A stretch of 64,000 nt of DNA from an uncultured Methylomirabilota bacterium. GTDB lineage: Bacteria > Methylomirabilota > Methylomirabilia > Methylomirabilales > 2-02-FULL-66-22. The notes beneath the pieces are model-generated. The model was given only the letters and a program-made list of their open reading frames with translations, was not told the origin of the DNA and did no database searches. Location of the stretch: assembly GCA_963705305.1 (NCBI GenBank), contig OY970067.1, forward strand, positions 1,984,001 through 2,048,000. Reading direction: 5' to 3'. The position numbers and the translations under genes were made by a program. Positions 7,156 to 34,848 of the stretch are shown one piece after another; the first letter of the stretch is position 1, and the number at the start of each line of letters is the position of its first letter.

Positions 7156-7438
7156 CCGGCGCCATGACCCGGAGAGGCTCCTTCCTCGCTCGGCCGTCGG
7201 GCTCCGCCCGAGTCGCCGCCTGTAGCGCAGGGAAGCGCGCCCGCCCGGGCCTCTCCCCTCGTTCGCCGGATTGACACGCACCCGGGGCACAGCTCTCCGG
7301 GTGCTTGTGTCTTCATCGGGGTTCTGGTAAATATCTGGCGAACACCGGTGGCATCGGGCAGCCGGGGCCCGGAGAAGGGTCGCTCAGGCCGCCCCGGACC
7401 CGAGTCGGCCTTCACCCCTCTTCCGGAGGAGCAGCGCC

Positions 7439-8392: not shown

Positions 8393-8558
8393 TCTGGACG
8401 TGGGTCGCCGCCGCCGGCGCCCCATGCAGGGGGTACGCAGCGCAGCAGCGTCCGCCCCGCGCCGTCAGGCCCCCGTTCGCGCGGCGCCCAGAGCTGGAGG
8501 CACCTAGGCGACCGCGCACGAGCGATCCGGCGCCGGTCCCTCGACCAAGGAGAGGCCC

Positions 8559-9857
8559 ATGCGATCCGACCAGCTTTTCGAGTCAGCCCAGCGACACCTG
8601 ATCGGTGGAGGAGGCGCAGGCGGCCGGTACCATCCGCTGCTCAAGCGCCCCCTGTATCTCACCCGTGGGGAAGGCTCGCGCATCTGGGATGTGGACGGGA
8701 AAGCATACATCGACTTCTTCACGGGGAGCGGGGCGAACTTCCTCGGTCACGGTCATCCCGCCATCACCGCCGCGGTCCGGCAGGCCCTGGAGATCGGGGT
8801 CATCTGCAACGGCGAGACGGAGCACCAGTCGCGGCTGGCCGACCTGGTCGCCGAGGCGGTCCCCTGCGCCGAGAAGATCCGATTCGCCAACAGCGGCACC
8901 GAGGCCACCCTGGGGGCCATCCGCATCGCGCGCGCCTACACCGGAAGGCCGAAGATCCTGAAATTCGAGGGCCACTTCCACGGCATGCAGGATTTCCTCT
9001 GGTGGAACTGCGCGACGCCCCCAGGGGAGGTGCGTTCCGACGGGACCGTGGCGCCTCTGCCCGACACCCAGGGAATGCCTGCGGCCCTCGCGGACCTCGT
9101 CGTGGTCGTCCCCTTCAACGACCCCGCCGCGTTCGAACGGGCCGTCGCGGCTCATCACACCGAGCTGGCCGGCGTGATCATGGAGCCGATCGCCTACAAC
9201 CAGGGCTGCGTCCCGGCGGATCCTGCTTTCCTCCGGCTGGTGCGCCAGCGCTGCACGGATCTCGGGATCGTCCTCATCTTCGACGAGGTTCTCTCCGGTT
9301 TCCGCATGTGCCGGGGAGGAGCCCAGCAGCACTACGGGATCACCCCCGACCTCTGCACGCTGGCCAAGGCGCTGGGCGGCGGCGTGCCCATCGCGGCCGT
9401 GTGCGGAAAGCCCGAGGTGATGTCGGTCCTGAACCCGGTGGGCCGCACGGTCATGAGCGGCACTTACACCGGCCACCTCACCGCCGTGATGGGGGCCATC
9501 GCCTGCCAGCAGGAGCTGGCCAAGCCCGACTTCTACCCCCATATCTCCCGGCTGGCCGACCGGCTGTATGCCGGAATCCGCGAGGCCCTGCGGGCCGCGG
9601 GCGTTCCGGGGGTCGTCCAGGGGATCGGCGCCCGCTTTGGCATCTACCTGGGGATCACCGATCCGGTAACAGACTACCGGCAGGCAATCCGGGCCAACCG
9701 GGGCATGGAAACCAAATTCGTCCTGGGCTGCGTGACGCGAGGGTTGTACCTCCACGACTACGGTCACACCATGCACCACGGCTTCTCCTCGCAGCACAGC
9801 GAGGCGGATATCGACGAAGCCCTGAACATCATCGAGGACTCCCTGCGAGACCTGTAG
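8559..9857 (+). CDS. Class III PLP-dependent aminotransferase (HemL/GSA-AM-like)
   Basis: WDVDGKAYID, NSGTEA, FEGHFHG, LIFDEV.SGFR and the PLP Lys in TLAKALGGG. Confidence 0.88.
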   Translation: MRSDQLFESAQRHLIGGGGAGGRYHPLLKRPLYLTRGEGSRIWDVDGKAYIDFFTGSGANFLGHGHPAITAAVRQALEIGVICNGETEHQSRLADLVAEAVPCAEKIRFANSGTEATLGAIRIARAYTGRPKILKFEGHFHGMQDFLWWNCATPPGEVRSDGTVAPLPDTQGMPAALADLVVVVPFNDPAAFERAVAAHHTELAGVIMEPIAYNQGCVPADPAFLRLVRQRCTDLGIVLIFDEVLSGFRMCRGGAQQHYGITPDLCTLAKALGGGVPIAAVCGKPEVMSVLNPVGRTVMSGTYTGHLTAVMGAIACQQELAKPDFYPHISRLADRLYAGIREALRAAGVPGVVQGIGARFGIYLGITDPVTDYRQAIRANRGMETKFVLGCVTRGLYLHDYGHTMHHGFSSQHSEADIDEALNIIEDSLRDL

Positions 9858-10041
9858 TTGATCGGCTTCCGGCGCCACCTTGTCGAGGGAGGGAGATCGT
9901 CCAGGCCCAAGCCGCTAATCCATGCCCCCGAGCGACCGGATTCGACGCTTCTTGCCCCCTGTCAACCATTATTTGCTCTCCTGCAGCCTGCTCACAAAAG
10001 CAGGCGATGGGGAACTTTATGATTTTATGGACGCTCCTCCT

Positions 10042-10154
10042 GGCCGTCCACGGATAATCCACAGGCGACCCACGGAAAAATCGAAGTTCTCCACATCGAA
10101 ACCAGCTCTATCCACAAGTTGCCCCTTGTCCTGAAAGAGGAGATGATATACCAT
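10042..10154 (+). promoter_or_regulatory. Phased DnaA-box array plus sigma-70-like promoter, copy 1
   Basis: TAATCCACA 10055, TTCTCCACA 10087 and CTATCCACA 10108 (each one mismatch to TTATCCACA); TTGTCC(10126)-17 nt-TACCAT(10149). Confidence 0.7.
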
Positions 10155-10225
10155 CGTGGTGCGCTTTCACCGGGTTCCTCGTTAGGATCACGGCTATTTT
10201 CTTCGGCTGCCAGCAGGCGGGATGG

Positions 10226-10435
10226 ATGCCGACGGATCCGAACTATTCGCCGGGATTCCTCTACAAGGGTGCCGTGCGGTTGTGCTCTCGCGGCACGGGC
10301 GACTGCCGGGGACGTGTGCGGAGATTCGCCGACGCTGCGGCGAACTCGGGTCGAGCGATCTGGGGCGAGGGACGGGACATGCGTGGGAACGATGGAGACG
10401 CCCTCGTGCGCGCTGAAGATCCGTCAAAACGGTAA
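10226..10435 (+). pseudogene. Diverged or truncated paralog of the small Zn-finger gene at 11551
   Basis: Starts MPTDPNYSPG (versus MPTDPEYSPG) with the same upstream AGGCGGGA; similarity is lost after about 10 codons. Confidence 0.45.
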
Positions 10436-10486
10436 CGAAGTGGGCGTGACGCCGGGGTGCACCTCCGACATCAAAAGGGGAGATCG

Positions 10487-10954
10487 ATGACGACGGAGAG
10501 CGGGTTCGTTCTCGTGGCGAGAGGGGCGATCGTCGCGGTCGCGTTGGTCTGGGGGATGTTGCTGGTGCCATCCCCGGCCACGGCCGACGGGGCACTGGCG
10601 GTCGGCGTTCCCCCCGACGTTGGGAAGGACGGCTTCGCCTATGGCCGGAATATCAACTCACCCAGCGAGGAGACGGCGCGCCAGAAGGCGCTCGAACTCT
10701 GCAGCACCGCCAAGGAGTCGACCGACACGGCCCGCCGGCTGTGCACCGTGGTGATGAGCTTCCACCGTCAATGCGTCTCCGTCGCCATGGACCCCAAAGC
10801 CGGAACGCCCGGCGTCGGCTGGGCCGTCGCGCCCACCCGCGAGGCGGCAGAGCAGCAGGCCCTGAGCAACTGCATGGCCACGGCCGGTCCGGACCGGCGG
10901 CAGTTCTGCGTCAAGTCCGATTCGGCGTGCGACGAGGCGTCTCCAACCCCATGA
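10487..10954 (+). CDS. Secreted DUF4189-like cysteine-rich protein
   Basis: Signal peptide ending ATA-DG; two repeats of A...AL..C......C.V with six Cys. Confidence 0.75.
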   Translation: MTTESGFVLVARGAIVAVALVWGMLLVPSPATADGALAVGVPPDVGKDGFAYGRNINSPSEETARQKALELCSTAKESTDTARRLCTVVMSFHRQCVSVAMDPKAGTPGVGWAVAPTREAAEQQALSNCMATAGPDRRQFCVKSDSACDEASPTP

Positions 10955-11364
10955 CCGCCAGGCCGCCCGCCAGCGGCGCCCTGCGCGTGCGATGGGGTGG
11001 GGGAAGCTGCGAGGCGCTTCCTGGCGGGCGGGGGAATTCGGACATCGAGAAGGCCCGCGAAGCGGAGTGCCCCCTTCGGCCAATCGGATAGATTTGTCGC
11101 TGTGAATGGGGACACTCGGGATCCAGATGAGATCCGCAATCCGTCGGTGTGGCCGGTGGCGACGGGACCCATGGCATACTGACAGACAACGACAGTGACG
11201 GGCGTGGCCCTGGCTCAACGTTCCAGGTCTCTTTCGCTCTTCTTGCGCCTCGAAGGCCAGTCTTGTTAGCGTCCACCTGCATGCCACACATGTGATTCCC
11301 TGCAGATGTCTTCCCAGGGGGCCCCCCGAACCGCCGCGGGCCGCCGCCGGGCGTGGGAGTCATC

Positions 11365-11478
11365 GGCCGTCCACGGATAATCCACAGGCGATTCACGAAA
11401 AAAATGAAGTTATCCACACAGAAACATCTCCCATCCACAGGTTTCCCCCTTGTCCTAAACGGGGGAGCGACATAGCCT
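11365..11478 (+). promoter_or_regulatory. Phased DnaA-box array plus sigma-70-like promoter, copy 2
   Basis: TAATCCACA 11378, perfect TTATCCACA 11410 and CCATCCACA 11431; TTGTCC(11450)-17 nt-TAGCCT(11473); first 27 nt identical to copy 1. Confidence 0.75.
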
Positions 11479-11550
11479 ATTTACACGCGCTCGCCGCGAT
11501 TCACTCATACCATCCCCGTTCTTTGCAACAGCCGCAACGAGGCGGGACGG

Positions 11551-11769
11551 ATGCCGACAGATCCGGAATACTCGCCAGGATTGATCCAGACATGTGCCTG
11601 GTGCGGCTCGCGCGCGGACGGACCCGATGGGTTCGCCAGAAAGCCTGCCCGTTCGCTGCCGGTCAGTCACGGAATGTGTCCCGCTTGCCGCGAAGCGTTC
11701 CTCGCCACCTTGGCCGTCTGGCAGCTCTCCCTCCGCGTCGACGACCCCCTCGTTGACCACGAAGGCTGA
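11551..11769 (+). CDS. Small (72 aa) putative Zn-finger protein, CAWC...SHGMCPAC
   Basis: Two CxxC pairs with an SHG motif; GAGGCGG RBS-like sequence; conserved upstream module. Confidence 0.7.
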   Translation: MPTDPEYSPGLIQTCAWCGSRADGPDGFARKPARSLPVSHGMCPACREAFLATLAVWQLSLRVDDPLVDHEG

Positions 11770-19903: not shown

Positions 19904-19942
19904 CCGCCCACCGTGGCTCTGCGGCGGACAGGTGATGTCGTG

Positions 19943-21082
19943 ATGGACGAGTCGCACGCCATGGATCGCGAAGGAAAGCCGGTAGCAGCGGCGAGCCCCT
20001 TTGCGCAAGCCGAGGGGGCTGCGGGGGCCACCTGGGGTGTCCGTTTTGGCATGCGCTTGCCCGAAGACTACGGCGACCCGGCCGGGGAGTATGGGGCGGT
20101 CCGGAGCGGCGTGGGCCTGGTGGACCTGTCCTTCCGCGGACTGTTGCAGGTGACGGGCAGCGAACGTCTCCGCTGGCTGAACGGCCAGGTCACCAACGAC
20201 GTGGCCAGGCTGCAAGCCGGTGAAGGCAAGCCGGCCGCCGTCCTGACCGCCAAGGGGCATATCCTGTCCGACCTGGCGGTGTATGGGCTGGCGGATTCGA
20301 TCTGGGTGGATCTGCCCAGGCAGCGTGAAGAGACCGTACGGGCCGCCTTCAATCGCCACATCATCGCCGACGACGTGACCGTCGAGGCGGCCGGCGCCCG
20401 CCTTGCCCACCTCATGCTGGCAGGCCCGGCCGCCGCCGGCCTCATGGCTCAGGCGGCGGGAGAGGCGGTGGCCGATCTTCCCGCCTGGCACCACCGAGAG
20501 GTCCGGCTGGGAGACGTCCCCGGCCGGGTCGCCGCCAGCCGGTGGCTGCAGCTCCCTACGTACGATGTGTGGATACCCGTCGACGCCGCCGGAACGGTCT
20601 GGGAGGCGCTGAGGCGTCTCGATATCGATGCCCGCCCGGTCGGGATGGCGGCCCTGGATGTCCTGCGCCTGGAGGCAGGCTGGCCGTGGTACGGGGTGGA
20701 TTTCGACGAGGGACATCTGCTGATGGAGGCCCTCACGCCGGCCCACGTGAGTTTCACCAAGGGCTGCTACGTCGGGCAAGAGGTCGTCATCCGCGTCGAG
20801 CATCAGGGCCACGTCAACCGGCGGCTGTGCGGCCTGGTCGTGGTGGGGGCGACTGCGCCGCCCTCCGGAGCGGACATCCTGGCGGACGATAAGAAGGTCG
20901 GCAGCGTGACCAGCGCCGGCCCGTCGCCCGCCCTGGGCCGGGTGATCGCCCTGGGGTTCATCCGGCGCGAATGCTCGGAGGCGGGGACGCGCCTCCGCAT
21001 CCGGGCCGGAGAGGAAGCTCTGGAGGCGGAGGTCGTTGCCCTGCCGTTCGTCCCCGCACCGGCCTGGCGGCCGGAGAGTTGA
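19943..21082 (+). CDS. ygfZ: YgfZ/GcvT-family folate-binding protein (Fe-S maturation factor-like)
   Basis: KGCYVGQE signature, LRLEAG and VDLS.RG. Confidence 0.8.
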   Translation: MDESHAMDREGKPVAAASPFAQAEGAAGATWGVRFGMRLPEDYGDPAGEYGAVRSGVGLVDLSFRGLLQVTGSERLRWLNGQVTNDVARLQAGEGKPAAVLTAKGHILSDLAVYGLADSIWVDLPRQREETVRAAFNRHIIADDVTVEAAGARLAHLMLAGPAAAGLMAQAAGEAVADLPAWHHREVRLGDVPGRVAASRWLQLPTYDVWIPVDAAGTVWEALRRLDIDARPVGMAALDVLRLEAGWPWYGVDFDEGHLLMEALTPAHVSFTKGCYVGQEVVIRVEHQGHVNRRLCGLVVVGATAPPSGADILADDKKVGSVTSAGPSPALGRVIALGFIRRECSEAGTRLRIRAGEEALEAEVVALPFVPAPAWRPES

Positions 21083-21208: not shown

Positions 21209-23065
21209 ATGTCGCGTGAACGACCGGTCAAGAATCGAACCGCCGGACCCACGGAGCGGAGCCTGGCGAGCCCGCCCCCGAACAAGATGACTCGGGCGAT
21301 CGTGGCGCGCCTGCGCGCGCACGGCGAGGCCGTGCGTCGGGCCTGGAAAGCCGAGATGGCTGCCCGCCGCCTGCTGCAGCGGCTCACTCCGGAGGAGGCC
21401 GAGGCGGAGTCCGCCGCGATCTATGACGTGCTGATGGAATGCCTGGAGACCGGCCGGTACCACAGCGCGCAGGCGTACGCCGAAGAAGTGGCCGAGCGGG
21501 ATGTCTTCCGCGGCATCGGGGCCAAGCAGGTTATCGGGCGGCTGCTGGTGTTGCGGGACGTGTGCAGCCGGTTCATCTGCCTGGACTGCGAGCGGCACGG
21601 CGCCGACCAGGCCTGTGCGCTGGATGTCTATGAACCGGTGGCCAACCGGATTCTGACCATCGTGGCCATGGCCTTCGTACAAGAGCGGGAGCGGGCCGTG
21701 GGTCGAGGCCGGGAGCAGCTCGGCGCCCTGGTGGAGGCCGGGCTGGTCCTGGCGGCGGAGCGTTCCCTCACGTCCGTCCTCCAGCGCATCGTCGAGCTGG
21801 CCTGCCGGCTCCTGCATGCCACCTACGGGGCGCTGGGCGTCCTGGACGCGAACGGCCTCCTGGAGCAGTTCGTCTCGACCGGCCTCGATGAGGCGACGCG
21901 GGCGCGCATCGGCCCGCTTCCCACCGGCCAGGGGATCCTGGGCATCGTCGTCCGCGAGGCGCGGCCGCTGCGCCTTCGTGACCTGACGGGGGATCCTCGC
22001 GCCACCGGGTTCCCCCCGCACCATCCTCCCATGCGCTCCTTCCTGGGCGTGCCCATCATGTCCAAAGGCCGGGTCTTCGGGAACCTGTACGTGACGGACA
22101 AGCAGGGCGCGGAAGAATTCACCAAGGAGGACGAGCAGCTGGCGGTGACCCTGGCGGCGCAGGCGGCCATCGCCATCGAGAACGCCAGCCTCTACGACAA
22201 GCTGCGTCGCTCGTACGAGGAGCTGAAACAATCGCAGGACCTCTTGGTGCGTCAGGAGAAGCTGGCGTCCCTGGGTCGGCTGGCGGCGGGCCTGGCCCAC
22301 GAGCTGAACAACCCGCTGTCGTCGGTGGCCGGATTCGCCGAGGCCTTGCAGCGGCGCATGTCCGAGGGCGGAGGGCTCGACGCGTCCGGGTCCGGGGAGT
22401 GCCGGGAATACCTGGACATGATTCAGTCCGAGGTCGCCCGCGCCGCGGGGATCGTCCGGCGGCTCCTCGATTTCGCTCGCCAGCGCGAGCCCAGCTTCGG
22501 CCCCGTGAACCTTCTCCAGGTGGTGCGAGAAGCCGTCTCGTTCGCAGAACGCCAGGCCAGCCTCGCCAACCGGCAGATCCAGGTGGAGTCGTTCCCGGAG
22601 ACCTACGAGGTCCTGGGGGACGACCAGATGCTCCAGCAGGTGGTCCTCAACCTTCTCACCAACGCTCTGGACGCCATCGAGGGCGGGGGAATGATTCAGG
22701 TCAGCGCCCGCCTGGCGCCGGCAGAGCACCCTGGCACCCAGGCAGCTCGGCATGCGGGCGAGAGGTCCTCTCAGGATGCCGGGCCATCGGATCTCCTGAT
22801 TACCGAACCCACAGCCTGGGTGGACTTGGTCGTGTCGGATACCGGCAGCGGGATCGCCCCGGAGAATCTCAACAAGGTCATGGACCCGTTTTTCACCACC
22901 AAGGAAGTTGGGAAAGGGACCGGTCTCGGTCTGGCCATCTGCCAGAGCATCGTGGAGCAACACGGCGGTCGCCTCTCCGTCTGGAGCAAGGGCCTGGGAG
23001 AAGGCACGGCGGTCACCGTCCGACTGCCGCTCGTGTTCTCCGCCGGCCACGGAGGGCAGATGTGA
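21209..23065 (+). CDS. Sensor histidine kinase: RsbR-like N-terminal helical domain, DosS/DevS-like GAF, HisKA and HATPase
   Basis: GAF with YGALGV, GFPPHHPPMRSFLGVP and GNLY; H-box AHELNNPL; NALDA, DTGSG and PFFTTKEVGKGTGLGL; start may be at 21287. Confidence 0.9.
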   Translation: MSRERPVKNRTAGPTERSLASPPPNKMTRAIVARLRAHGEAVRRAWKAEMAARRLLQRLTPEEAEAESAAIYDVLMECLETGRYHSAQAYAEEVAERDVFRGIGAKQVIGRLLVLRDVCSRFICLDCERHGADQACALDVYEPVANRILTIVAMAFVQERERAVGRGREQLGALVEAGLVLAAERSLTSVLQRIVELACRLLHATYGALGVLDANGLLEQFVSTGLDEATRARIGPLPTGQGILGIVVREARPLRLRDLTGDPRATGFPPHHPPMRSFLGVPIMSKGRVFGNLYVTDKQGAEEFTKEDEQLAVTLAAQAAIAIENASLYDKLRRSYEELKQSQDLLVRQEKLASLGRLAAGLAHELNNPLSSVAGFAEALQRRMSEGGGLDASGSGECREYLDMIQSEVARAAGIVRRLLDFARQREPSFGPVNLLQVVREAVSFAERQASLANRQIQVESFPETYEVLGDDQMLQQVVLNLLTNALDAIEGGGMIQVSARLAPAEHPGTQAARHAGERSSQDAGPSDLLITEPTAWVDLVVSDTGSGIAPENLNKVMDPFFTTKEVGKGTGLGLAICQSIVEQHGGRLSVWSKGLGEGTAVTVRLPLVFSAGHGGQM

Positions 23066-23066
23066 G

Positions 23067-24449
23067 ATGAATCAAGACCATCCGCAGGGAGAACCCATCC
23101 GGGTGCTGGTCGTGGACGACGAGCGCCCCATCCGCTTCCTTCTGGAGAAGGAGCTCCCGCGAGCCGGCTGCGCCGTCACGGTCGCCGAGAGCGGCGAGGG
23201 AGCTCTGGAGCAGCTCCGCGCCCAGGACTTCAACGTCGTCCTGCTGGATCTGAAGATGCCCGGAATCGGCGGCATGGAGGCGCTCCGCCGGGTGCGGGAG
23301 TCCGGGGTGTCGGCTGAGGTCGTGGTCCTCACCGGGCATCCGGACGTGTCCAGCGCCATCGAGGCGATGAAGCTGGGCGCGTATGACTACCTCACCAAGC
23401 CCTTCAAGCTGGCCGAGGTGGAGGTGGTGCTGCGCCGGGCGGCGGAGCGAAAGCGGCTGCAGAAAGAGAATGCGGCCCTGCGGCAGATGGTGGCCCAGCG
23501 AGAGATTTCGCCCCCCATCCAAGGACGGAGCCCGGCGATCGCCGCGATCCTCGAAATCGTGGAACGGGTTGCACCCACCGACGCCAGCATTCTCATCGAG
23601 GGGGAGAGCGGCACCGGGAAAGGACTGGTGGCGCAGGCCATCCACCGGGGAAGCGCCCGGGCCGGCGGACCGTTTCTCGCCATCAATTGCGGAGGCTTCC
23701 AGGACCCGTTGCTGGAGAGCGAGCTGTTCGGCCACGAAAAGGGCGCGTTCACGGGGGCTTCCAGCGCCAAAGAGGGACTGTTCGAGGTGGCCGATGGTGG
23801 GACGCTGTTCCTGGACGAGGTGGGGGAGATGAGCCCCGCGATGCAGGCCAAGCTGCTCCAGGTCCTGGACTCGCGGCAGCTGCGCCGGGTCGGGGGAACG
23901 CGGCTGCATCGCGTCGATGTTCGCATCGTGGCGGCGACGAACAAGACGCTGGCGGAGGAGGTCCGTGAAGGCCGCTTTCGGGAGGACCTGTATTATCGGT
24001 TGAACGTTGTCAACCTCGTCGTGCCGCCGTTGCGTGAGCGGAAAGAAGATATCCCCCTGCTGGCGGAGCACTTCCTGGCCGCCATGCAGGTCAGCGGTCG
24101 GAAAGCCAAGGGGGTCTCCCCCGAGGCCATGCGGTGCCTGGCGGATTACAGCTGGCCGGGAAACGTCCGCGAACTGGCGAACATGATCGAGCGGCTGATC
24201 ATCCTGACCCGCGGCCAGGTCATCGAGGTCAAGGACCTCCCGCCAACCCTGCGGGGAGGCGCGTCGGCGGCGCCGGCCGCCACCGCCATGCCGGTCTCGC
24301 TCTCGGATATGGAACGGCTGCACATCGCCAGGATCCTGGCGGAGACGGGCGGGAAGAAGATGCGGGCCGCTCGACTGCTCGGCATCGACCTCAAGACCCT
24401 CAATAAGAAGATCAAAGACTACGGGATCCCCCTTCCACCGGCCTCCTAA
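23067..24449 (+). CDS. NtrC-family sigma-54-dependent response regulator (REC-AAA+-Fis HTH)
   Basis: VVDDE, LDLKMPG, KPF; GESGTGK, GAFTGA, FLDEV, WPGNVREL; C-terminal HTH. Confidence 0.95.
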   Translation: MNQDHPQGEPIRVLVVDDERPIRFLLEKELPRAGCAVTVAESGEGALEQLRAQDFNVVLLDLKMPGIGGMEALRRVRESGVSAEVVVLTGHPDVSSAIEAMKLGAYDYLTKPFKLAEVEVVLRRAAERKRLQKENAALRQMVAQREISPPIQGRSPAIAAILEIVERVAPTDASILIEGESGTGKGLVAQAIHRGSARAGGPFLAINCGGFQDPLLESELFGHEKGAFTGASSAKEGLFEVADGGTLFLDEVGEMSPAMQAKLLQVLDSRQLRRVGGTRLHRVDVRIVAATNKTLAEEVREGRFREDLYYRLNVVNLVVPPLRERKEDIPLLAEHFLAAMQVSGRKAKGVSPEAMRCLADYSWPGNVRELANMIERLIILTRGQVIEVKDLPPTLRGGASAAPAATAMPVSLSDMERLHIARILAETGGKKMRAARLLGIDLKTLNKKIKDYGIPLPPAS

Positions 24450-24628
24450 CAGACTGCTGAAAAAGGCCCATCTGCCGGGTACCCATCTGATGGGTGCCCA
24501 GCCTTCGGACGGGTGCCCCCGCGCTCCCGCGGCGCTGCGACGTACGTGTAAGTACGTCTCGCGCGCCGCCTTGCATCCGGGCCTTTTTCAGCAGCCTGAG
24601 CGAAAACGAGTTTTTCAGCACCCTGCTA
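24450..24628. mobile_element. MITE-like non-autonomous element with terminal inverted repeats
   Basis: cagactgctgaaaaaggcc (24450-24468) versus ggcctttttcagcagcctg (24580-24598), 18/19 inverted match; a second right end tttttcagcaccctg at 24611-24625; no transposase. Confidence 0.65.
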
Positions 24629-24663
24629 CGCTCTTTGATTCGTCAATTCGATCTGGATGGCTT

Positions 24664-24699
24664 CCCCGGAGAAACTCCCGCCCCCCCGGAGAAACTCCC
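24664..24699 (+). promoter_or_regulatory. Tandem enhancer (UAS)-like sites
   Basis: Two identical 16-mers ccccGGAGaaaCTCCc with a 20-bp period, each a GGAG-N3-CTCC palindrome, about 100-140 bp upstream of the sigma-54 motif. Confidence 0.7.
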
Positions 24700-24760
24700 A
24701 CCGTTCTTGGATGCTCAAGATTGAATAATTTCTGTGGTTAAGTACTTACTACATAAATTA

Positions 24761-24773
24761 TTTCAATTAGTTA
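24761..24773 (+). promoter_or_regulatory. IHF-like site within an AT-rich spacer
   Basis: TTTCAATTAGTTA versus WATCAANNNNTTR (one mismatch), preceded by an AT tract. Confidence 0.55.
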
Positions 24774-24800
24774 TATACATTTGAGAGAATGACGATAGAA

Positions 24801-24817
24801 TTGGTACGGGTGTTGCT
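24801..24817 (+). promoter_or_regulatory. Sigma-54 (-24/-12) promoter
   Basis: TTGGTACGGGTGTTGCT: GG-N10-GC, one mismatch to TGGCAC-N5-TTGCW. Confidence 0.8.
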
Positions 24818-24854
24818 TCTCTCTAGAAATGGAAGCTAACCGCGCAGAGAGGAA

Positions 24855-25307
24855 ATGAAGGATATGCAGATCGTTGTCTGCTCCGGAAATCCGAGGGTCA
24901 TTGCGATCATCGAAGGACTGTTCGGAATCGAGGATCGGATCACGGTCTGTGAGTCCGGCCTGGAATTGCTGGGGACGGTCCGCGCAGTATCCTCCGACGT
25001 GGTGATCCTGGATCTGGAGACGCCGGGGCTGAACAGCCTCTTCTTGGTCTCCGCCATTCAGGAGTTGGCTCCACAGGTACCGATTGTGGCCGTCTCCATG
25101 CAGGCGCCGGCCGACCTTCGGGCCCTGACGCAAAAGGGGGTCACCTACGCCGCACTCGCCCCAGACGCCGACGATGGGGCGTCGGCGGCGCTGGCCGAGC
25201 TGGTGCGGGCCGCGTGCCCTACGCACGCCGTGGAGGCCGGATCAGGATCGAGCCGACGAATCCGACCGGTGCGGAGCGTCGTGGGCGCCGGGCGTCATAT
25301 CGACTGA
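24855..25307 (+). CDS. Stand-alone atypical receiver-domain protein
   Basis: DVVILDLETPG retains the phospho-Asp; the N-terminal acidic pair is replaced (VVCSG) and no conserved KP is seen. Confidence 0.7.
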   Translation: MKDMQIVVCSGNPRVIAIIEGLFGIEDRITVCESGLELLGTVRAVSSDVVILDLETPGLNSLFLVSAIQELAPQVPIVAVSMQAPADLRALTQKGVTYAALAPDADDGASAALAELVRAACPTHAVEAGSGSSRRIRPVRSVVGAGRHID

Positions 25308-25325
25308 GCACGCAAGGGAGAGACT

Positions 25326-26783
<1,458 letters not shown>

Positions 26784-26817
26784 TCCTCTTCTGTGTTCGT
26801 CTGACGAAAGGTGAGCC

Positions 26818-27588
26818 ATGCTAGAGATCAAGAACCTGCACGCAAAGGTGAACGGCCGGGAGATCCTCAAAGGGGTGAGCCTTACGATCAAGGCCGGCGA
26901 GGTCCACTCCATCATGGGGCCGAACGGCTCGGGAAAGAGCACCCTGGCCCAGGTCCTGGCCGGACGCGAGATCTACGAGGTGACCGAAGGGGAGGTGCTC
27001 TACCAGGGGAGGAGCCTCTTGGACATGGCGCCGGAGGAGCGGGCCTGCGAGGGGCTCTTCATGGCCTTCCAGTATCCGGTGGAGATCCCGGGGGTCAACA
27101 ACACCTACTTCCTGAAGGCCGCGCTCAACGCCGCCCGGAAGTACCGCGGCCAGGACGAGCTGGACGCCATGGACTTCCTGGCGCTGGTCAAGGACAAGAT
27201 GAAGCTCTTGGAGATGGACGACCGGCTGCTGAACCGGGCGGTCAACGAAGGCTTCTCGGGCGGGGAGAAGAAGCGGAACGAGATCTTCCAGATGGCCGTC
27301 CTCCAGCCCAAGCTGGCCATCCTGGACGAGACCGACTCGGGACTGGATATCGACGCCTTGCGGATCGTGGCCAGCGGGGTCAATTTCCTGCGGGATCCTC
27401 AGCGGGCCATCCTGGTCGTGACCCACTACCAGCGGCTGCTCAACTACATCGTCCCGGACTTCGTGCATGTCCTGGTGGACGGGCGGATCGTCAAGTCCGG
27501 AGACAAGGGGCTGGCCCTGGAGCTGGAAGAGAAGGGCTACGCCTGGGTGGAGCAGGAGGCCCGGACCGCCGTGCTGGCCAACGCGTAA
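26818..27588 (+). CDS. sufC: Fe-S cluster assembly ATPase SufC
   Basis: GPNGSGKS, FQYPVEIPGV, FSGGEKKRNE and LDETDSGLD motifs. Confidence 0.98.
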   Translation: MLEIKNLHAKVNGREILKGVSLTIKAGEVHSIMGPNGSGKSTLAQVLAGREIYEVTEGEVLYQGRSLLDMAPEERACEGLFMAFQYPVEIPGVNNTYFLKAALNAARKYRGQDELDAMDFLALVKDKMKLLEMDDRLLNRAVNEGFSGGEKKRNEIFQMAVLQPKLAILDETDSGLDIDALRIVASGVNFLRDPQRAILVVTHYQRLLNYIVPDFVHVLVDGRIVKSGDKGLALELEEKGYAWVEQEARTAVLANA

Positions 27589-27607
27589 CCGAAAGGACAC
27601 AGGGGTC

Positions 27608-28969
27608 ATGGCAGCCACACTCGCCCGCAAAGGGCAGACTGATATCTCGCGGTATGTGGAGAGCTTCGCGCGGTTCGAGGAGCGCATGACGGGGGACAGC
27701 CAGGCATGGCTGAAGCCGCTGCGGCGCGCCGGACTGGACCGCTTCACCGTGCTGGGATTCCCCACGGCGCGGGACGAAGACTGGCGCTTCACCAATCTGA
27801 CGCCGCTCATCCAGACGGCCTTCCGGCCGGCCTGGGACCGGCGCAGCGTTCCCGCGGCGGAGGCCCTCGCCCGCTTCGCGATTCCCGGCCTCACCGGCTG
27901 CCGACTGGTCTTCGTGGACGGCCGGTATGCGCCGTCCCTCTCGTCCCTGGCCGCCATCCCCCCGGGAGTGCAGATCGGCAGCTTGGCGGACGCGCCGGCC
28001 GGAGACGTCCGGGAGGCGATCCGGTTCCATCTGGGGCAGTATGTGGACGCGCACGGCGACCCCTTCTCCGCCCTGAACTCCGCCTTTCTGGAAGACGGGG
28101 CGCTCGTGCTCGTTCCCCGCGGCGTGGTGGTGTCCGAGCCGATTCACCTGCTCTACGTCTCCACGGCGGGGCCCGAGCCCACGATCACCCATCCCCGCAC
28201 CCTGGTCGTGTCGGGCGAGAACTGCCAGGCCACCATCCTGGAGGACTTCGTCTCGCTGGGCGAGGGGGTACACTTCTCGAACGCGGTCTCCGAGGTGGTG
28301 GCAGGGGACCACAGCGTGCTGGCTCATTATTTCATCCAGCGGGAGAATCCCCGCGCGTTCCACATCTCCACCCTGCGGGTCCAGCAGGAGGGGAGCAGCA
28401 GCGTCACCACCCACTCGGTCCTGCTGGGCGGGGCCCTCACGCGGCGCAACGTGCATCCGGTCCTGGCCGGGGAGGGGGCGGAGTGCCTGATCAACGGCCT
28501 GTTCATGCCGACCGGGCGCCAGCACATGGACAACTACATGAAGGTGGAGCACACCAAGCCGCACTGCTCCAGCCGGCAGTTCTACAAGGGCATCCTGGAC
28601 GGTCAGGCCCGAGGGGTCTTCCACGGCCGGATTATCGTGCACAAGGACGCCCAGAAGACGGATGCCAAGCAGACCAACATGAATCTGCTCCTGTCGGAGG
28701 ATGCCCAGATCGATACCAAGCCCCAGCTGGAAATCTACGCCGACGACGTGAAGTGCACTCATGGCGCGACGATCGGCCAGATAGACGACGACGCAATCTT
28801 CTACCTGCGTTCCCGCGGTATCGGCGAGGCTGCGGCCCGCGCGCTGCTGCTGTTTGCCTTCGCCGGGGAGAGCCTCCAGCGCATGACGGTCGAGCCGATC
28901 CGCCGCCACCTGGAGATGCTGGTCAAGCAGTGGATGTCCCACGGCGATCTCGTGGAGGGAGTGCGATGA
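27608..28969 (+). CDS. sufD: Fe-S cluster assembly protein SufD
   Basis: EDWRFT, AQKTDAKQ, KPQLEIYADDVKCTHGAT and FYLRSRG motifs. Confidence 0.96.
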   Translation: MAATLARKGQTDISRYVESFARFEERMTGDSQAWLKPLRRAGLDRFTVLGFPTARDEDWRFTNLTPLIQTAFRPAWDRRSVPAAEALARFAIPGLTGCRLVFVDGRYAPSLSSLAAIPPGVQIGSLADAPAGDVREAIRFHLGQYVDAHGDPFSALNSAFLEDGALVLVPRGVVVSEPIHLLYVSTAGPEPTITHPRTLVVSGENCQATILEDFVSLGEGVHFSNAVSEVVAGDHSVLAHYFIQRENPRAFHISTLRVQQEGSSSVTTHSVLLGGALTRRNVHPVLAGEGAECLINGLFMPTGRQHMDNYMKVEHTKPHCSSRQFYKGILDGQARGVFHGRIIVHKDAQKTDAKQTNMNLLLSEDAQIDTKPQLEIYADDVKCTHGATIGQIDDDAIFYLRSRGIGEAAARALLLFAFAGESLQRMTVEPIRRHLEMLVKQWMSHGDLVEGVR

Positions 28970-30237
28970 GCAACGCGGCGCAGCGGGTGACCGAGGAGCC
29001 CTGCCAGGACTGCCTGGTGGGATTCGGCAACGACAAGATCCGTCAGGATTTCCCCACGCTCCAGGAACAGGTTCACGGGAAGCGGCTGGTCTATCTCGAC
29101 AACGCCGCCACCACCCACAAGCCGCAAGCGGTGATCGACCGGATTGTCCGCTACTACGTGGCGGAAAACTCCAACGTGCATCGCGGGGTCCACTTCCTGA
29201 GCCAGGTGGCCACCCAGGCCTACGAGAGTGCGCGCAGCCGTGTCCGGGAATTCCTGAATGCGGCCCACGACCGGGAGATCATCTACACGCGGGGCACCAC
29301 AGAGAGCATCAACCTGGTGGCCGCCACCTACGGCCGGAGCCGCGTCAAGGCGGGGGACGAGATCATCATCTCGGCCATGGAGCACCACTCCAACATCGTG
29401 CCCTGGCAGATGCTGTGCGAAGAGAAGGGGGCCAAGCTGCGGGTCATTCCCATGAACGATGCCGGGGAGCTCCTCCTGGAAGAGTACGAGCGGCTCCTGA
29501 ACGACCGGACCAGGCTGGTCGCGGTCGCCTATGTCTCCAACACCCTGGGCACGGTGAATCCCGTCCAGGAGATCATCGCCCTGGCGCACCATCGCGGCGT
29601 GCCGGTGCTGGTGGACGGGGCGCAGGCGACGCCCCACATGCCGGTGGACGTCCGGGACCTGGACTGCGATTTTTACGCCTTTTCCGCCCACAAGCTCTTC
29701 GGTCCCACCGGATTCGGGATCCTGTACGGCAAGGCGGAGCTCCTGGAGGCCATGCCCCCGTACCAGGGGGGCGGGGACATGATCAGCGCCGTCACCTTTG
29801 AGAAGACGCTGTTCAACTCCCTCCCGTACAAGTTTGAAGCCGGCACGCCCCACATCGAGGGGGCCATCGGATTGGGGGCGGCCATCGAGTACGTCCAGCG
29901 GATCGGCATGCATCAGATCGCGGCCTACGAGGCCGACCTGCTGGCCTACGGGACCGAGTTGCTATCCGCGATCCCCGGTCTGCGGATCATCGGCACCGCC
30001 GCGCGCAAGGCGGGGGTGCTCTCATTCGTGCTGGACGGCATCCACGCCCATGACGTGGGCACAATCCTGGATCTGGAGGGCGTGGCGGTCCGGGCCGGGC
30101 ACCACTGCGCCATGCCGGTCATGAAGCGCTTCGGGGTTCCCGCCACGGCCCGGGCGTCGCTGGCGTTCTACAACACCCGCGAGGATCTCGAGGCCCTGGC
30201 CAAGGCGATCCACAAGGCGCGCGAGGTATTCGCCTGA
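28966..30237 (+). CDS. sufS: Cysteine desulfurase SufS
   Basis: YLDNAAT, NVHRG, EHHSN, FSAHK and RAGHHCA motifs. Confidence 0.96.
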   Translation: MSNAAQRVTEEPCQDCLVGFGNDKIRQDFPTLQEQVHGKRLVYLDNAATTHKPQAVIDRIVRYYVAENSNVHRGVHFLSQVATQAYESARSRVREFLNAAHDREIIYTRGTTESINLVAATYGRSRVKAGDEIIISAMEHHSNIVPWQMLCEEKGAKLRVIPMNDAGELLLEEYERLLNDRTRLVAVAYVSNTLGTVNPVQEIIALAHHRGVPVLVDGAQATPHMPVDVRDLDCDFYAFSAHKLFGPTGFGILYGKAELLEAMPPYQGGGDMISAVTFEKTLFNSLPYKFEAGTPHIEGAIGLGAAIEYVQRIGMHQIAAYEADLLAYGTELLSAIPGLRIIGTAARKAGVLSFVLDGIHAHDVGTILDLEGVAVRAGHHCAMPVMKRFGVPATARASLAFYNTREDLEALAKAIHKAREVFA

Positions 30238-30686
30238 TGTCGGATCTGCGGGAGCTGTACCAGCAAGTCATCCTGGATCATTACAAGAAGCCGCGGAACT
30301 TCCAGAAGCTGGCGGATGCCAATCGGCACGCGGAGGGCCACAATCCCCTCTGCGGGGACGAGATCACCGTCTACCTCCACATGGACGGGGAGGTGATCAA
30401 GGACATCAGCTTCACGGGCGCCGGCTGCGCCATCTCCCAGTCCGCCGCCTCGCTGATGACCACGGTGCTGAAGGGCAAGACGCGGGCCGAGGCCGAGGCG
30501 CTGTTCAAGAAGTTCCACGATATGGTGACCGGGGAGGGGGGAGCCCCGGATCCAATGGAGCTGGGCAAGCTGGCGGTGTTCTGCGGGGTGAGCGAGTTCC
30601 CGGTGCGGGTCAAGTGCGCCAGCTTGCCCTGGCACACCCTGCACGCAGCCTTGGCAGGCGCGGAGGAGGCCGTTTCCACGGAGTGA
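30237..30686 (+). CDS. sufU: SUF system sulfur-transfer/scaffold protein SufU
   Basis: LYQQVILDH, NPLCGD, GCAIS and RVKCA motifs. Confidence 0.95.
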   Translation: MSDLRELYQQVILDHYKKPRNFQKLADANRHAEGHNPLCGDEITVYLHMDGEVIKDISFTGAGCAISQSAASLMTTVLKGKTRAEAEALFKKFHDMVTGEGGAPDPMELGKLAVFCGVSEFPVRVKCASLPWHTLHAALAGAEEAVSTE

Positions 30687-30775
30687 GGGGGAGCGCGCCG
30701 CGACCACCGGAGGCGGCCGGCGCTCGGACGACGCGGTCAGGAAGGCTCATCCAGGTGGGGACGGACGAGAGAGGC

Positions 30776-31102
30776 ATGGGGAGCATCGCTGTGGACCCAC
30801 GAGCAATCGAGTCGCAGGTTGTCGATGCGTTGCGGACGTGCTACGACCCGGAGATCCCGGTGGACATCTACGAGCTGGGGCTCGTCTATGGCGTTACGGC
30901 GAGCCCGACGGGAGCGGTGGAGATCAGAATGACGCTCACATCGCCCGCCTGCCCGGTGGCGGGGGAGCTTCCCGTGGAAGTGGAGCGAAAGGTGCGGGCC
31001 ATTCCCGGCGTGACCGACGCCAAGGTCGAGATCGTCTTCGATCCCCCCTGGGACCCCTCCCGCATGTCCGAGGCTGCCCGCCTGCAGCTGGGAGTGCTAT
31101 GA
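30776..31102 (+). CDS. sufT: DUF59/SufT Fe-S maturation protein
   Basis: YDPEIPVDIYELGLVY, MTLTSPACP and MSEAARLQLG motifs. Confidence 0.92.
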   Translation: MGSIAVDPRAIESQVVDALRTCYDPEIPVDIYELGLVYGVTASPTGAVEIRMTLTSPACPVAGELPVEVERKVRAIPGVTDAKVEIVFDPPWDPSRMSEAARLQLGVL

Positions 31103-31374
31103 GGCGCGGTGCCGCAGGCGCGATGAAGCCGCACCCCAGGCTGTTGGCCGTCGTGAACACGTCCTGCACGGGGTGCGACGTCTGTCTGGATTTCTGTCCG
31201 GTTGACTGCATCGATCACGAGCCGCCGGCACAGGCCGCGGCGGCGCCGGCTCCTCCCGTCCACATCCGGGATGAGGAGTGCATCGGCTGCCAGGTGTGTG
31301 CCAAGGTGTGCGAGCACCTCGCCCTAAACGCTATCCGGATGGTGCCGGTCGCTGCCGGACAGCCAAACGGCTAG
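31099..31374 (+). CDS. 2x[4Fe-4S] ferredoxin
   Basis: CTGCDVCLDFCP and CIGCQVCAKVC; ATGA overlap with sufT. Confidence 0.85.
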   Translation: MRRGAAGAMKPHPRLLAVVNTSCTGCDVCLDFCPVDCIDHEPPAQAAAAPAPPVHIRDEECIGCQVCAKVCEHLALNAIRMVPVAAGQPNG

Positions 31375-32109: not shown

Positions 32110-34848
32110 ATGAACGAGCAATCGCGGGAACCCGGCGAGCGCGGGCAGGCGGCCTCGGCCATACGCCTGAGCCGCCGGAACTACCGGGAGCTGGCGGAAT
32201 CTTTGCCGCACGTGGTGTTCGAGGTCGACGACGAGGGTCGTCTGCTCTTCACCAACCGGCACGCCTTCGAGGTCTTCGGATACTCGCAGGAGGATTACGA
32301 GCGGGGGCTGAACGTCCTGGAGATCATCGCCCCCGAGGACCGGGCGCGGGCGCTGGAGAACATGCGGCGGGTGCTCGCGGGCGAGGATCCCGGCGGAGTG
32401 GAGTACACCGTCCTGCGAAAGGACGGGAGCGCCTTCCCCGCCCTGATCCATGCCTCGCCCATCCTCTACGAGGGGCGCGCGGTGGGGCTGCGAGGGATCC
32501 TGCAGGACATCACCGACCGCAAGCGGTTCGAGGCGGCCCTGCGCGAGAGCGAGGAGAGGTACCGGCAGCTCTTCGAGATGGAGTCGGACGCCATCTTCCT
32601 GATCGACAACGCAACCGGCCGGATCCTGGAGGTCAACGCGGCGGCGGCGGCGCTCTACGGATACGAGCGGGGCGAGCTGCTGCGCATGCACCATACCGAT
32701 CTGTCGGCAGACCCGGGGGCGACCCGGCGGGCAACCCTGGAGCATCAGTCGCGGGTTCCCCTCCGCTACGGCCGCAAGCGGGACGGCACTGTGTTTTGTG
32801 TCGAGATCGCGGCCCGCCATTTCGTCTGGCAGGGGCGGAACGTGCACGTGGCGGCCATCCGCGACATCTCGGAAAGGCTGGGGGCCCAGGAGGAGCTCGA
32901 GCGGCAGCGCTCGCTGCTGCAACGGGTCCTGGATAATTCCCCCAGCGCCATCTACGTGAAGGATCGCGAGGGGCGCATCCTCCTGGCCAACCGGATGTTG
33001 TCGGAGCGCTTCGGACAGCCTCCGCAGGGGCTGGTGGGGAAGAACAGCTTCGACCTGGTGCCGGACGCCAAAACGGCCCGCGCCATCCATGACGAGAACC
33101 TGGCCATCCTGCGCGGCGAGCTGGAGCGGGTCGAGCGCGAGGAGCAATCCACGGACGCCTCCGGGCAGCAGCGCTGGTCCTATACCGTCAAGGTCCCCGT
33201 CCGGGACGAGGCGGGCCGCATCGAGTTCCTGATGGCACTCATCACGGACATCACGACCCTCAAACAGGCCGAGCAGGAGGCGCGGAGATCGCAGGAGCTG
33301 CTGCAGAAGACCTTCGCCAGCCTCCGGGAGGCGGTCTTCATCATCGACGCCCAGACGATGCGCATCCTCGACTGCAATCCTGCCGCCACGACCATCTTCG
33401 GCTACTCGCGGGAAGAGCTCGTGGGGCAGGTCGTGGATGTCCTGCACGTGGACCGCGAGGCGCGGGAGGAATTTCGCCTCCATCTGTACCGGGCGGTGGA
33501 GGAACGCGGCTTCCTCGGCTTGTTGGAATTCCGGATGAAGCGGAAGGACGGGACCGTGTTCCCCAGCGAACACAGCGTGGTGCCCCTGATGCACGAGTCC
33601 GGGAAGCGAATCGGCTGGGTGAGCGTCGTCCGGGACATCGGCGAGCGCAAGCATGCGGAGGAGGAGCGGCGCCGCTCGGAGGCGAGACTCCAGGAAGCGC
33701 AGCGGCTGGAGAGCCTGGGGGTCCTGGCGGGGGGGATCGCTCACGACTTCAACAATCTGCTTACGGGAATCCTGGGTCACGCGGACATGGCGCGCCTGAG
33801 GCTGCTGCCCGGTTCACCGGCACGGGAGAGCCTGGAGCAGGTGGTGCTGGCGGCTCGACGGGCGGCAGGGCTGACCCAGCAACTCCTGGCGTACGCGGGT
33901 CGCGGGCGCGTGGTCTTCCGACCGCTTCACCTGGAGGACCTGATCGCGGAGACGATGGAGCTGCTGGCGGCCTCCATTCCCCAGAGCTGCACACTCCAGT
34001 TTCAGCCCGGCGAGGAGGTTCCCCCCATCGAGGGGGACGAGACGCAGCTGCGCCAGGTCGTGATGAACTTGATCCTCAATGCGGCCGAGGCCATCGGGAA
34101 TCGGGCCGGGGCGATCAGCATTCGCACCAGCGTCCGAGAGTGCACCGCCGCCGATCTGGCAGACGGCCAGACCGGGGAGAGCCTTCCGTCCGGGCGCTAC
34201 GTCATGCTGGAGATGGCGGATACGGGATGCGGGATGACGGAAGAGGTCAAGTCTCGCATCTTCGAGCCGTTCTTCACGACCAAGGTCACCGGGCGCGGCC
34301 TTGGCCTAGCGGCGGTTCTCGGAATCGCGCGGCGCCACAGCGGGACCATCAGGGTGGCCAGCCTGCCGGGACGCGGCACGACGATGACCGTGCTCTTTCC
34401 GGTCTCCGGCCGTCCGGTCGAGCCGGAGAGCGCGCCGCGCACGGCGGAGCCGACCTGGCAGGGGCGGGGGACGATCCTGGTCGTGGATGACGAGGTCACC
34501 CTCGTCGCCGTGGCCGAAGCCATGCTGCAGGAGATGGGCTTCGGTGCGCTCTCCGCGTCGGATGGCCGGGAGGCCATCGAGCTGTTCCGCGAACACGCCC
34601 AGGACATCAGTGCGGTCCTGCTGGACCTGGCTATGCCCAGGATCGACGGCGCAGAGGTGTGCCGCGAGCTCCGCCGCATCCGGCCCCAAGTCCCCGTTAT
34701 CCTCTGCAGCGGAATCGGCGCGGACGAGGCGGCCGTTCGCATCCAGGAGACCGGGCTGGACGGGTTCCTCCAGAAGCCGTTCACGCTCGAGGAGCTGGCG
34801 GCCGTCATCCGAGGGGCGCTGGAAAAGGCAAGACCGGATCGGGCCTGA
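32110..34848 (+). CDS. Hybrid sensor histidine kinase with four PAS/PAC domains and a C-terminal receiver
   Basis: Repeated RKDG/DIT(E)RK PAC motifs; AHDFNNLL H-box; PFFTTK..GRGLGL; VVDDE, LDLAMP and QKPF. Confidence 0.95.
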   Translation: MNEQSREPGERGQAASAIRLSRRNYRELAESLPHVVFEVDDEGRLLFTNRHAFEVFGYSQEDYERGLNVLEIIAPEDRARALENMRRVLAGEDPGGVEYTVLRKDGSAFPALIHASPILYEGRAVGLRGILQDITDRKRFEAALRESEERYRQLFEMESDAIFLIDNATGRILEVNAAAAALYGYERGELLRMHHTDLSADPGATRRATLEHQSRVPLRYGRKRDGTVFCVEIAARHFVWQGRNVHVAAIRDISERLGAQEELERQRSLLQRVLDNSPSAIYVKDREGRILLANRMLSERFGQPPQGLVGKNSFDLVPDAKTARAIHDENLAILRGELERVEREEQSTDASGQQRWSYTVKVPVRDEAGRIEFLMALITDITTLKQAEQEARRSQELLQKTFASLREAVFIIDAQTMRILDCNPAATTIFGYSREELVGQVVDVLHVDREAREEFRLHLYRAVEERGFLGLLEFRMKRKDGTVFPSEHSVVPLMHESGKRIGWVSVVRDIGERKHAEEERRRSEARLQEAQRLESLGVLAGGIAHDFNNLLTGILGHADMARLRLLPGSPARESLEQVVLAARRAAGLTQQLLAYAGRGRVVFRPLHLEDLIAETMELLAASIPQSCTLQFQPGEEVPPIEGDETQLRQVVMNLILNAAEAIGNRAGAISIRTSVRECTAADLADGQTGESLPSGRYVMLEMADTGCGMTEEVKSRIFEPFFTTKVTGRGLGLAAVLGIARRHSGTIRVASLPGRGTTMTVLFPVSGRPVEPESAPRTAEPTWQGRGTILVVDDEVTLVAVAEAMLQEMGFGALSASDGREAIELFREHAQDISAVLLDLAMPRIDGAEVCRELRRIRPQVPVILCSGIGADEAAVRIQETGLDGFLQKPFTLEELAAVIRGALEKARPDRA

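Follow-up and report, generated by a model that had tools for sequence, protein, structure and literature searches.

A sensor histidine kinase and an NtrC-type activator were found directly upstream of a sigma-54 promoter and a SUF iron-sulphur (Fe-S) cluster assembly operon in a 64,000-nucleotide window of the genome of an uncultured Methylomirabilota bacterium (genome G000, 5.6 Mb; window G000:C1:1984001-2048000). As judged by sequence comparison, this module is real, conserved and dedicated to the regulation of suf. Whatever the signal may be, it is very likely that the kinase acts through the activator and sigma-54 on the suf genes, and the interpretation given in an earlier reading of the letters alone (the sequence-only reading), in which a sensor kinase acts on suf through an enhancer-binding protein, is supported. 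Positions given without a contig are those of the window, the whole stretch of DNA analysed; other G numbers denote the genomes of relatives, and L numbers denote loci. The parts of the circuit are as follows.

21209..23065, + strand: sensor histidine kinase, GAF, HisKA and HATPase, with an RsbR-type head and an NtrB-type core
23067..24449, + strand: NtrC-type activator, receiver, sigma-54 AAA+ with GAFTGA, and HTH_8
24667..24679, no strand: enhancer site 1, palindrome GGAG-AAA-CTCC
24687..24699, no strand: enhancer site 2, spaced 20 bp from site 1 and centred ~110 bp 5' of the -24 GG
24761..24773, + strand: IHF-like site, [GC]TTA pattern, full consensus loosely met
24802..24817, + strand: sigma-54 -24/-12 promoter, TGGTAC-N5-TTGC starting at 24802, predicted +1 near 24828
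24855..25307, + strand: atypical stand-alone receiver (REC), receiver fold
25326..26783, + strand: sufB, above the NCBIfam cut-off
26818..27588, + strand: sufC, above the NCBIfam cut-off
27608..28969, + strand: sufD, above the NCBIfam cut-off
28966..30237, + strand: sufS, above the NCBIfam cut-off
30237..30686, + strand: sufU, above the NCBIfam cut-off
30776..31102, + strand: sufT-like (DUF59) protein, TIGR02945 142.4 bits against a cut-off of 143.4
31099..31374, + strand: 2x[4Fe-4S]-type ferredoxin, last in the run, kept 3' of sufT in several genus members

All open reading frames (ORFs) of the circuit, with their domains, were located at these positions, and the GAFTGA motif and the full promoter layout that the sequence-only reading had placed directly behind the pair are present. 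The order and identities of the run that it gave as receiver-sufB-C-D-S-U-T-ferredoxin also hold, with the qualifications that sufT falls 1 bit under its cut-off and that the receiver is degenerate. The sufB, sufC, sufD, sufS and sufU genes together identify a SUF Fe-S assembly system, and this sufB is the only one in G000. The activator includes a complete receiver domain with invariant Asp17, Asp18, Asp61, Thr89 and Lys111, the AAA+ domain with GAFTGA and a Fis-type helix-turn-helix, and thus has the sequence features of a Group I NtrC-type bacterial enhancer-binding protein (bEBP). The context of this group, namely an upstream palindromic enhancer, a -24/-12 promoter and an rpoN gene in the genome, was found as well. 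GSFTGA replaces GAFTGA in one activator ortholog and in the more distant G020 protein. The activator is under the cut-off of every named NCBIfam family shown (best AtoC, 473/714 bits), and the kinase is under those of the named two-component families AtoSC, ZraSR, NtrBC, NtrX, GlrR and PrsKR (best AtoS, 184/646 bits).

Among 22 sigma-54-suf promoters aligned on the -24/-12 element, a palindrome pair GGAG-WWW-CTCC (also written GGGAG-WWW-CTCCC) was called in 19, spaced by 18-21 bp and placed 92-130 bp away from the -24 GG; a further two have one clear and one degenerate site, and the last is cut by a contig end. In 18 of the 22, the [GC]TTA pattern lies 28-33 or 41-42 bp 5' of the TGG, and the site at 24761..24773 is IHF-like as judged by the usual IHF consensus. 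Enhancer and promoter matrices were trained on relatives with the window excluded, and the window site is the only one of 742 sigma-54-like sites in G000 with an enhancer pair. Chance would give a strict -24/-12 match 0.025 times per 5 kb of one strand. No additional regulon members were detected in G000, where the second-best pair (C1:194001) lies inside an ABC gene without a promoter.

The neighbourhood was also compared across the phylum. A query consisting of the kinase head plus GAF had matches in 52 of 201 phylum genomes, including 45 of the 54 own-order genomes besides G000 (one match being GAF-only and one head-only) and 6 of 146 in the rest. Own-order suf loci were scored where the 5' end of sufB is present (n=44; G003, G008, G016 and G030 are among those left out). 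Of the 44, 35 have a strict -24/-12 motif in the 5 kb that precede sufB, and in the other nine the contig ends after 326-1612 bp upstream. The enhancer-pair score was passed by 32 of the 35 motif-bearing loci at a cut-off of 14/20 which, like the Rrf2-type box pattern used below, was set after the sequences had been viewed. In 16 own-order loci, spanning four families, the activator was retrieved on the same stretch as suf and lies upstream of it. Some genomes have genes inserted between the activator and the enhancer, with the enhancer-suf link unbroken. In 11 loci of genus g7 (probably Methylomirabilis) and in G014, no promoter lies directly 3' of the activator, and the enhancer, promoter and REC are found at the suf operon. 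On the evidence of gene order, the enhancer and promoter travel with suf and not with the regulator genes. The prediction that the neighbourhood would be conserved in relatives is therefore borne out, both genes and cis-elements being kept across the order.

Genome-wide, the pair pattern occurs once, at suf, in both G036 and G024. This pattern is not sensitive, because it missed the known sites in G005 and G035. The G067 genome carries two sufB operons (C7:138251 and C12:4757), each with an enhancer pair and promoter, through either real duplication or an assembly artefact, and a third pair there is inside a coding region. The genes that relatives have downstream of this promoter are for the most part connected with Fe-S clusters (Mrp, IscA, NuoB as read from sequence, 7Fe ferredoxin, NuoI, Rieske ferredoxin and MoaA), and NDH-2 and a small Cys-rich protein are also found there. 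A protein of ~90-100 amino acids that contains CC and CxxC motifs and matches no Pfam family (L045:13610-13915, - strand) is encoded in sigma-54-suf operons of families f4-f7; G000 has 11 copies, for example at C1:1475583.

In the sister order, genomes G053, G097 and G167 combine the kinase with an altered palindrome pair (GGACG-AAA-CGTCC type), which is located behind the activator and before REC-suf. The activator helix in these genomes reads GIHLKTLNRK, as compared with GID[LIV]KTL, and differs at the place matching the enhancer change; as far as sequence comparison can tell, activator helix and enhancer co-vary across the orders. Sister-order suf loci without a kinase match include the -24/-12 motif in 0 of 26, three of which have less than 900 bp upstream. 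A CGAC-N-TTT-N-GTCG box, which we take to resemble IscR type-1 sites, is present in 18 of 25 scored kinase-lacking loci, often beside a sigma-70-like -10 element. An Rrf2 gene lies just 5' of suf in four kinase-lacking genomes (G166, G168, G174 and G187; two confirmed by NCBIfam). The genomes lacking the kinase (L118-L142) would thus probably have an Rrf2 regulon of their own. G175 was filtered from the scored table and counted from a separate survey of sister-order suf loci. An unrooted SufB tree without an outgroup (46 sequences, including G040 and 20 of 25 freshly fetched kinase-negative genomes) places sigma-54-linked and Rrf2-linked operons on either side of a single branch with good support; G083 and G163, on a long branch, are the exception.

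A motif-first scan of metagenomes returned at least 120 stretches with the pair pattern, 31 of which have a -24/-12 motif 85-124 bp further on. Among these 31 stretches listed, 27 have a module target gene downstream or an activator upstream; a target gene was found in 22, REC in 21, sufB in 13 and an upstream activator in 19. The other 89 pair stretches listed are mostly chance matches. On contig L246, an enhancer-promoter like that of the window precedes a gene for a rhodanese-like protein with a CxxC-containing N-terminus, which is a possible further regulon member. Contig L255 includes the enhancer pair and -24/-12 motif, apparently twice, alongside moaA and two ORFs that resemble a plasmid-replication gene and a sigma-factor gene, and mobile carriage of the promoter is possible there.

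RNA contigs from 4 of 18 listed runs, belonging to three studies, were compared with the G036 operon (L100). In run X1, a single contig without differences (7000-11512) covers sufC, sufB, mrp, the small protein and REC and ends in adapter. Counted from the motif at 11562, the predicted +1 in L100 is near 11536, and the X1 contig ends 24 nt downstream of it. The X2 contig ends at 11473 and the X8 contig at 11419 with a loose end, and the bin containing the enhancer has no RNA cover in any of the four runs. These ends just past the predicted start fit the start downstream of the -24/-12 motif that the sequence-only reading had predicted, as well as a REC-suf transcript; as contigs prove neither a start nor a single transcript, they are a weak but consistent hint.

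The N-terminal part of the kinase is divided into two domains.

21290..21718, + strand: N-terminal all-helical RsbR-type head, residues 28-170, helical in the model
21758..22180, + strand: DosT/DosS-type GAF, best PDB match 2vzw (E 3e-40)

The GAF best matches the DosT and DosS GAF-A structures, and its model has a root-mean-square deviation of 1.5 A from, and ~49% identity with, the heme-bound DosT GAF. Residue equivalences counted on the alignment are His272 with DosS His149, Tyr294 with Tyr171, and Gly210 with DosT Gly85 (DosS Glu87). In DosS, His149 is described as the proximal ligand, Tyr171 as discriminating between ligands and Glu87 as a channel residue, Gly at this place being the DosT state (PMC4082495). 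His272 is conserved in 36 of 36 orthologs and Tyr294 in 35 of 36, and the GAF has far more invariant positions than the head. Its His motif is the only one among 28 tblastn GAF matches listed for G000. The DosS/DosT-type GAF recognised by the sequence-only reading is confirmed by these comparisons, and the kinase is a probable gas sensor that would bind heme in this domain and, on the residues kept, probably senses like DosT/DosS. It is not a member of the DosS/DosT family, because it has one GAF, a HisKA core and an NtrC-type partner.

Over 143 amino acids, the head shares 49% identity with the N-terminal part of an RsbR-like STAS protein in L024; the genes that follow the latter were read as RsbS/T/X (a stressosome-type cluster). 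L024 was among 15 loci returned by a search of the genome contigs for related loci, none of which is orthologous. With RsbRD_N (PF14361), the head gave an atlas lead score of 0.84 (under 0.9); the head alone has no Pfam match, and the L024 protein is below the Pfam cut-off. The head is fused here to a GAF and kinase, unlike the N-terminal domain of the stressosome RsbR. It is read as probably heme-free because it has no invariant His. A whole-protein fold search of the kinase model returned no globin fold. The core is NtrB-type, with HisKA (His364) and HATPase, and no membrane segment is predicted. The domain arrangement of the whole-kinase model was left unused because its predicted template modelling score is 0.40. 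Close kinase homologs with a taxon name are mostly NC10 or Methylomirabilales, with one Sulfotelmatobacter and one Spirochaetia. A profile search of 1.84 billion proteins returned mostly multi-GAF proteins, with head and GAF in one stretch in 3 of the best 150. One of these three, protein P0379, named Armatimonadota, combines a head-plus-GAF sensor like that of the window with a HisKA_3 core, nearer the DosS layout.

REC has a receiver fold (predicted local distance difference test score 82.5) and is one of 192 proteins in a family whose named members are mostly from NC10. Asp53 is invariant and Ser81 is kept, Cys-Ser replaces the acidic pair and there is no conserved Lys, so that REC does not have the set of acidic pocket, phospho-Asp, Thr/Ser and Lys that defines a canonical phosphorylatable receiver. 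Cys9 and Cys32 are invariant (26/26 aligned) and presumably lie at the ends of strands 1 and 2 as neighbours in the receiver fold. Speculatively, this two-cysteine pseudo-receiver is probably a feedback modulator; that the feedback would depend on thiol or metal is a guess. Several f4 and f6 loci have no detected REC behind the promoter, and REC is hence not essential to the circuit.

Taken as a whole, the sequence of events that is considered fairly probable would run from heme state through His364 and Asp61 to the enhancer and sigma-54. The ligand or redox state of the GAF heme would set autophosphorylation at His364, and since the adjacency of the two genes is fixed, the phosphate would pass to Asp61 of the neighbouring activator. 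The activator would then bind the two palindromes ~110 bp upstream, loop to the sigma-54 holoenzyme, probably aided by IHF, and open the promoter near 24828, to give a single REC-sufBCDSUT-ferredoxin transcript. By analogy with DosS, which is described as active in its deoxy and CO/NO-bound states and as inactive with O2 bound (PMC4082495), the switch may be on when the heme is deoxy or NO/CO-bound and off when it is O2-bound. This polarity is only somewhat favoured over its opposite because O2-active heme kinases are also described (PMC11841059).

Several observations weigh against this circuit, and they are considered here with the alternatives. Co-induction of NDH-2 and SUF would also fit a switch turned on by O2. 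The input may not be gas on heme, with the wiring unchanged: the RsbR-type head could receive a partner or stress signal, or heme occupancy could act as a proxy for iron, an alternative judged unlikely on balance. It would suit the G009 kinase (L051:3004-4143), in which the head is joined straight to the core without a GAF while activator, promoter, REC and sufB still follow, and also the conservation of a head so close to that of RsbR across the order. However, the G009 kinase may be an assembly artefact, and the wealth of invariant positions, including the His ligand, lies in the GAF. The truncation of the head in the G024 and G036 kinases, which counts against the circuit as drawn, counts against a signal received by the head as well, and tblastn found no second copy of the head in G000. 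A wider scheme is distinctly unlikely, in which the system would fully replace IscR/SufR homeostasis: a stressosome-derived head kinase would read NO/O2 on heme, the two-cysteine pseudo-receiver would sense cluster or thiol and feed back on the phosphorelay, and Fe-S supply would be coupled to self-made NO/O2 in the NO-dismutating methanotrophs of the order.

It is improbable that the sigma-54 promoter drives the leading genes only (REC, the small Cys protein and carriers), with sufBCDSU transcribed mostly from internal sigma-70 promoters. An essential pathway is expected to need basal expression, and TATAAT-like elements lie directly 5' of sufB in G069, G064 and G137. A weak sigma-70-like site (9/12) is present in the window at 24774-24801, with two such sites found against 1.3 expected, which is within chance. 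Yet no sigma-70-like site was found by scanning from 24802 to sufB, where a promoter of sufB's own would contradict the sequence-only reading; the REC-sufB gap is just 19 bp; the leading genes vary among relatives while suf stays behind the promoter; and one G036 RNA contig extends from REC to sufC, although this RNA consists of contigs of another genome from the few runs compared, without a DNA control. That a genuine promoter answers to another bEBP of the genome, the adjacent pair regulating something else, is more improbable still. G000 has 28 bEBP-like matches, the kinase and activator genes lie apart from suf in genus g7, and G013 (95% complete) has the enhancer and promoter with no kinase or activator match. 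Against this stand the position of the activator upstream of suf in four families, the change of enhancer sequence together with the activator helix in the sister order, and the absence of enhancer and promoter where the kinase is absent. The contrast between 35 of 44 and 0 of 26 loci represents one or two events, not many, because one branch of the SufB tree separates them, and G163 has a kinase and activator (in frameshifted pieces) and a suf operon without the sigma-54 motif. That the two-component genes, the promoter-like sequence and the suf operon lie together by chance is a negligible prospect; sigma-54-like patterns do arise randomly or in repeats (there are 56 strict matches in G000, and many sigma-54-like sites are inside one repeat), but conserved position, spacing and co-variation across relatives contradict it.

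The window has no IscR/Rrf2, SufR or Fur gene, as the sequence-only reading had noted, and elsewhere G000 has two Rrf2 matches (one with an in-frame stop) and four Fur-family matches, while SufR had no match anywhere in the genome. For IscR/Rrf2/SufR-type control of the window operon, the operator box is likewise absent from the window promoter; the Rrf2-type box pattern occurs in one of the 22 sigma-54-suf promoters, that of the window not being the one. One rpoN and four IHF/HU-family matches were found in G000, none inside the window. The Rrf2 gene at G000:C1:3871983 (L071) has an in-frame TAG ~14 codons in, due to either a pseudogene or a sequencing error, and precedes genes reading as MoaD/MoeB/JAB-type sulphur-transfer proteins. 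SUF as the only scaffold in G000 is ruled out by a NifU_N-Mrp fusion, an Nfu-domain match and two IscS-like desulfurases elsewhere. The fusion (G000:C1:1005800-1007150, - strand) lies within a NifB/NifX-like and ParA-ferredoxin-like gene cluster and is a possible alternative Fe-S scaffold; with the IscS-like enzymes, it could supply clusters while the suf operon is off.

DosS and DosR combine tandem GAF-A/GAF-B domains and a HisKA_3 core with a NarL-type regulator, the ferredoxin FdxA is of the 7Fe type, and NifA is not known to be a response regulator phosphorylated by a heme kinase of its own. The window kinase differs from DosT/DosS, which have two GAFs, in having one GAF behind an RsbR-type head, and from DosS/DosR in its NtrB-type HisKA core, its NtrC-type sigma-54 activator and a suf operon as target. 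It shares with mycobacterial DosT/DosS the heme-type GAF with equivalents of His149, Tyr171 and the DosT-like Gly85, and the DosR regulon is described as including FdxA (PMC4082495), a ferredoxin target comparable to the 7Fe ferredoxin in sigma-54-suf operons of relatives. In Rhodobacter capsulatus, NifA and RpoN act directly at the Fe-S assembly operon iscN-nifU1-nifS, although the target is the nitrogenase-specific NIF system and not SufBCD (PMC6925177). NmpRSTU of Myxococcus xanthus likewise places a soluble heme-requiring kinase above an NtrC-like activator that uses two binding sites and a sigma-54 promoter, and it includes a receiver-only protein proposed as a phospho-sink, but it differs in its protoglobin sensor, multi-step relay and oxygen-utilisation targets, and no suf/Fe-S term matched in its main text (PMC11841059). 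In Bradyrhizobium sp. DOA9, sufB, sufD, sufS, sufE and erpA are lower in rpoN mutants, a transcriptome effect under N2-fixing conditions that may be indirect, the accessible text describing no suf promoter, activator or sensor (PMC13207237).

The suf regulators named in the available parts of the literature, namely IscR, Fur/RyhB, OxyR, NsrR and SufR (PMC8593673), RisR (PMC9973013), and PerR and CysR (PMC11631912), are all one-component, sensing clusters, iron, peroxide or cysteine, whereas a whole order appears to use a kinase, a bEBP and sigma-54. The full-text literature searched, which largely excludes subscription papers, yielded no account of a suf promoter under a two-component or enhancer-binding activator, or of this system in Methylomirabilota. 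The description of an undescribed route therefore stands for direct two-component/sigma-54 control of suf, with NifA-nifUS and NmpRSTU as partial precedents; each link has a precedent, but the way they are combined on a SUF operon appears undescribed, as do the architecture of the kinase and the operator motif. One lineage appears to switch on its Fe-S assembly genes via a probable heme gas-sensing kinase and a sigma-54 bEBP and not via the Fe-S-sensing repressors known elsewhere. As the sister order of this phylum apparently uses an Rrf2-type scheme, in most of its genomes, the two orders provide a natural setting in which to compare two regulatory logics of a single essential pathway. Methylomirabilis, the nitrite-dependent methanotrophs of the order, are described as making oxygen internally from NO (PMC8906906), and for the supply and protection of their Fe-S enzymes the module offers a sensor, an activator, an operator sequence and a start site that are all defined. 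Its parts are testable in a laboratory host without culturing the organism.

Beyond the sequence-only reading, the analysis added the RsbR-type head of the kinase, the two-cysteine degenerate receiver and two flanking features, an upstream ygfZ and a genome-wide repeat before the enhancer.

19913..21082, + strand: ygfZ/CAF17-like Fe-S maturation factor, TIGR03317 72.1 bits, cut-off 49
24450..24625, no strand: palindromic repeat resembling repetitive extragenic palindromes or miniature inverted-repeat transposable elements (REP/MITE-like), 145 blastn matches in the genome, folding z -8.9

The repeat sits between the activator stop and the enhancer and is absent there in the relatives compared; it may insulate the suf promoter from read-through and, on that comparison, is not part of the conserved module. 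No Rfam families were found in the window. The ygfZ gene lies directly 5' of the kinase in the window and at the same place in G014, G010, G005 and G009, with a fragment in G018. Just 3' of the suf operon, at 32110-34848, the window encodes a 912-amino-acid multi-PAS hybrid histidine kinase.

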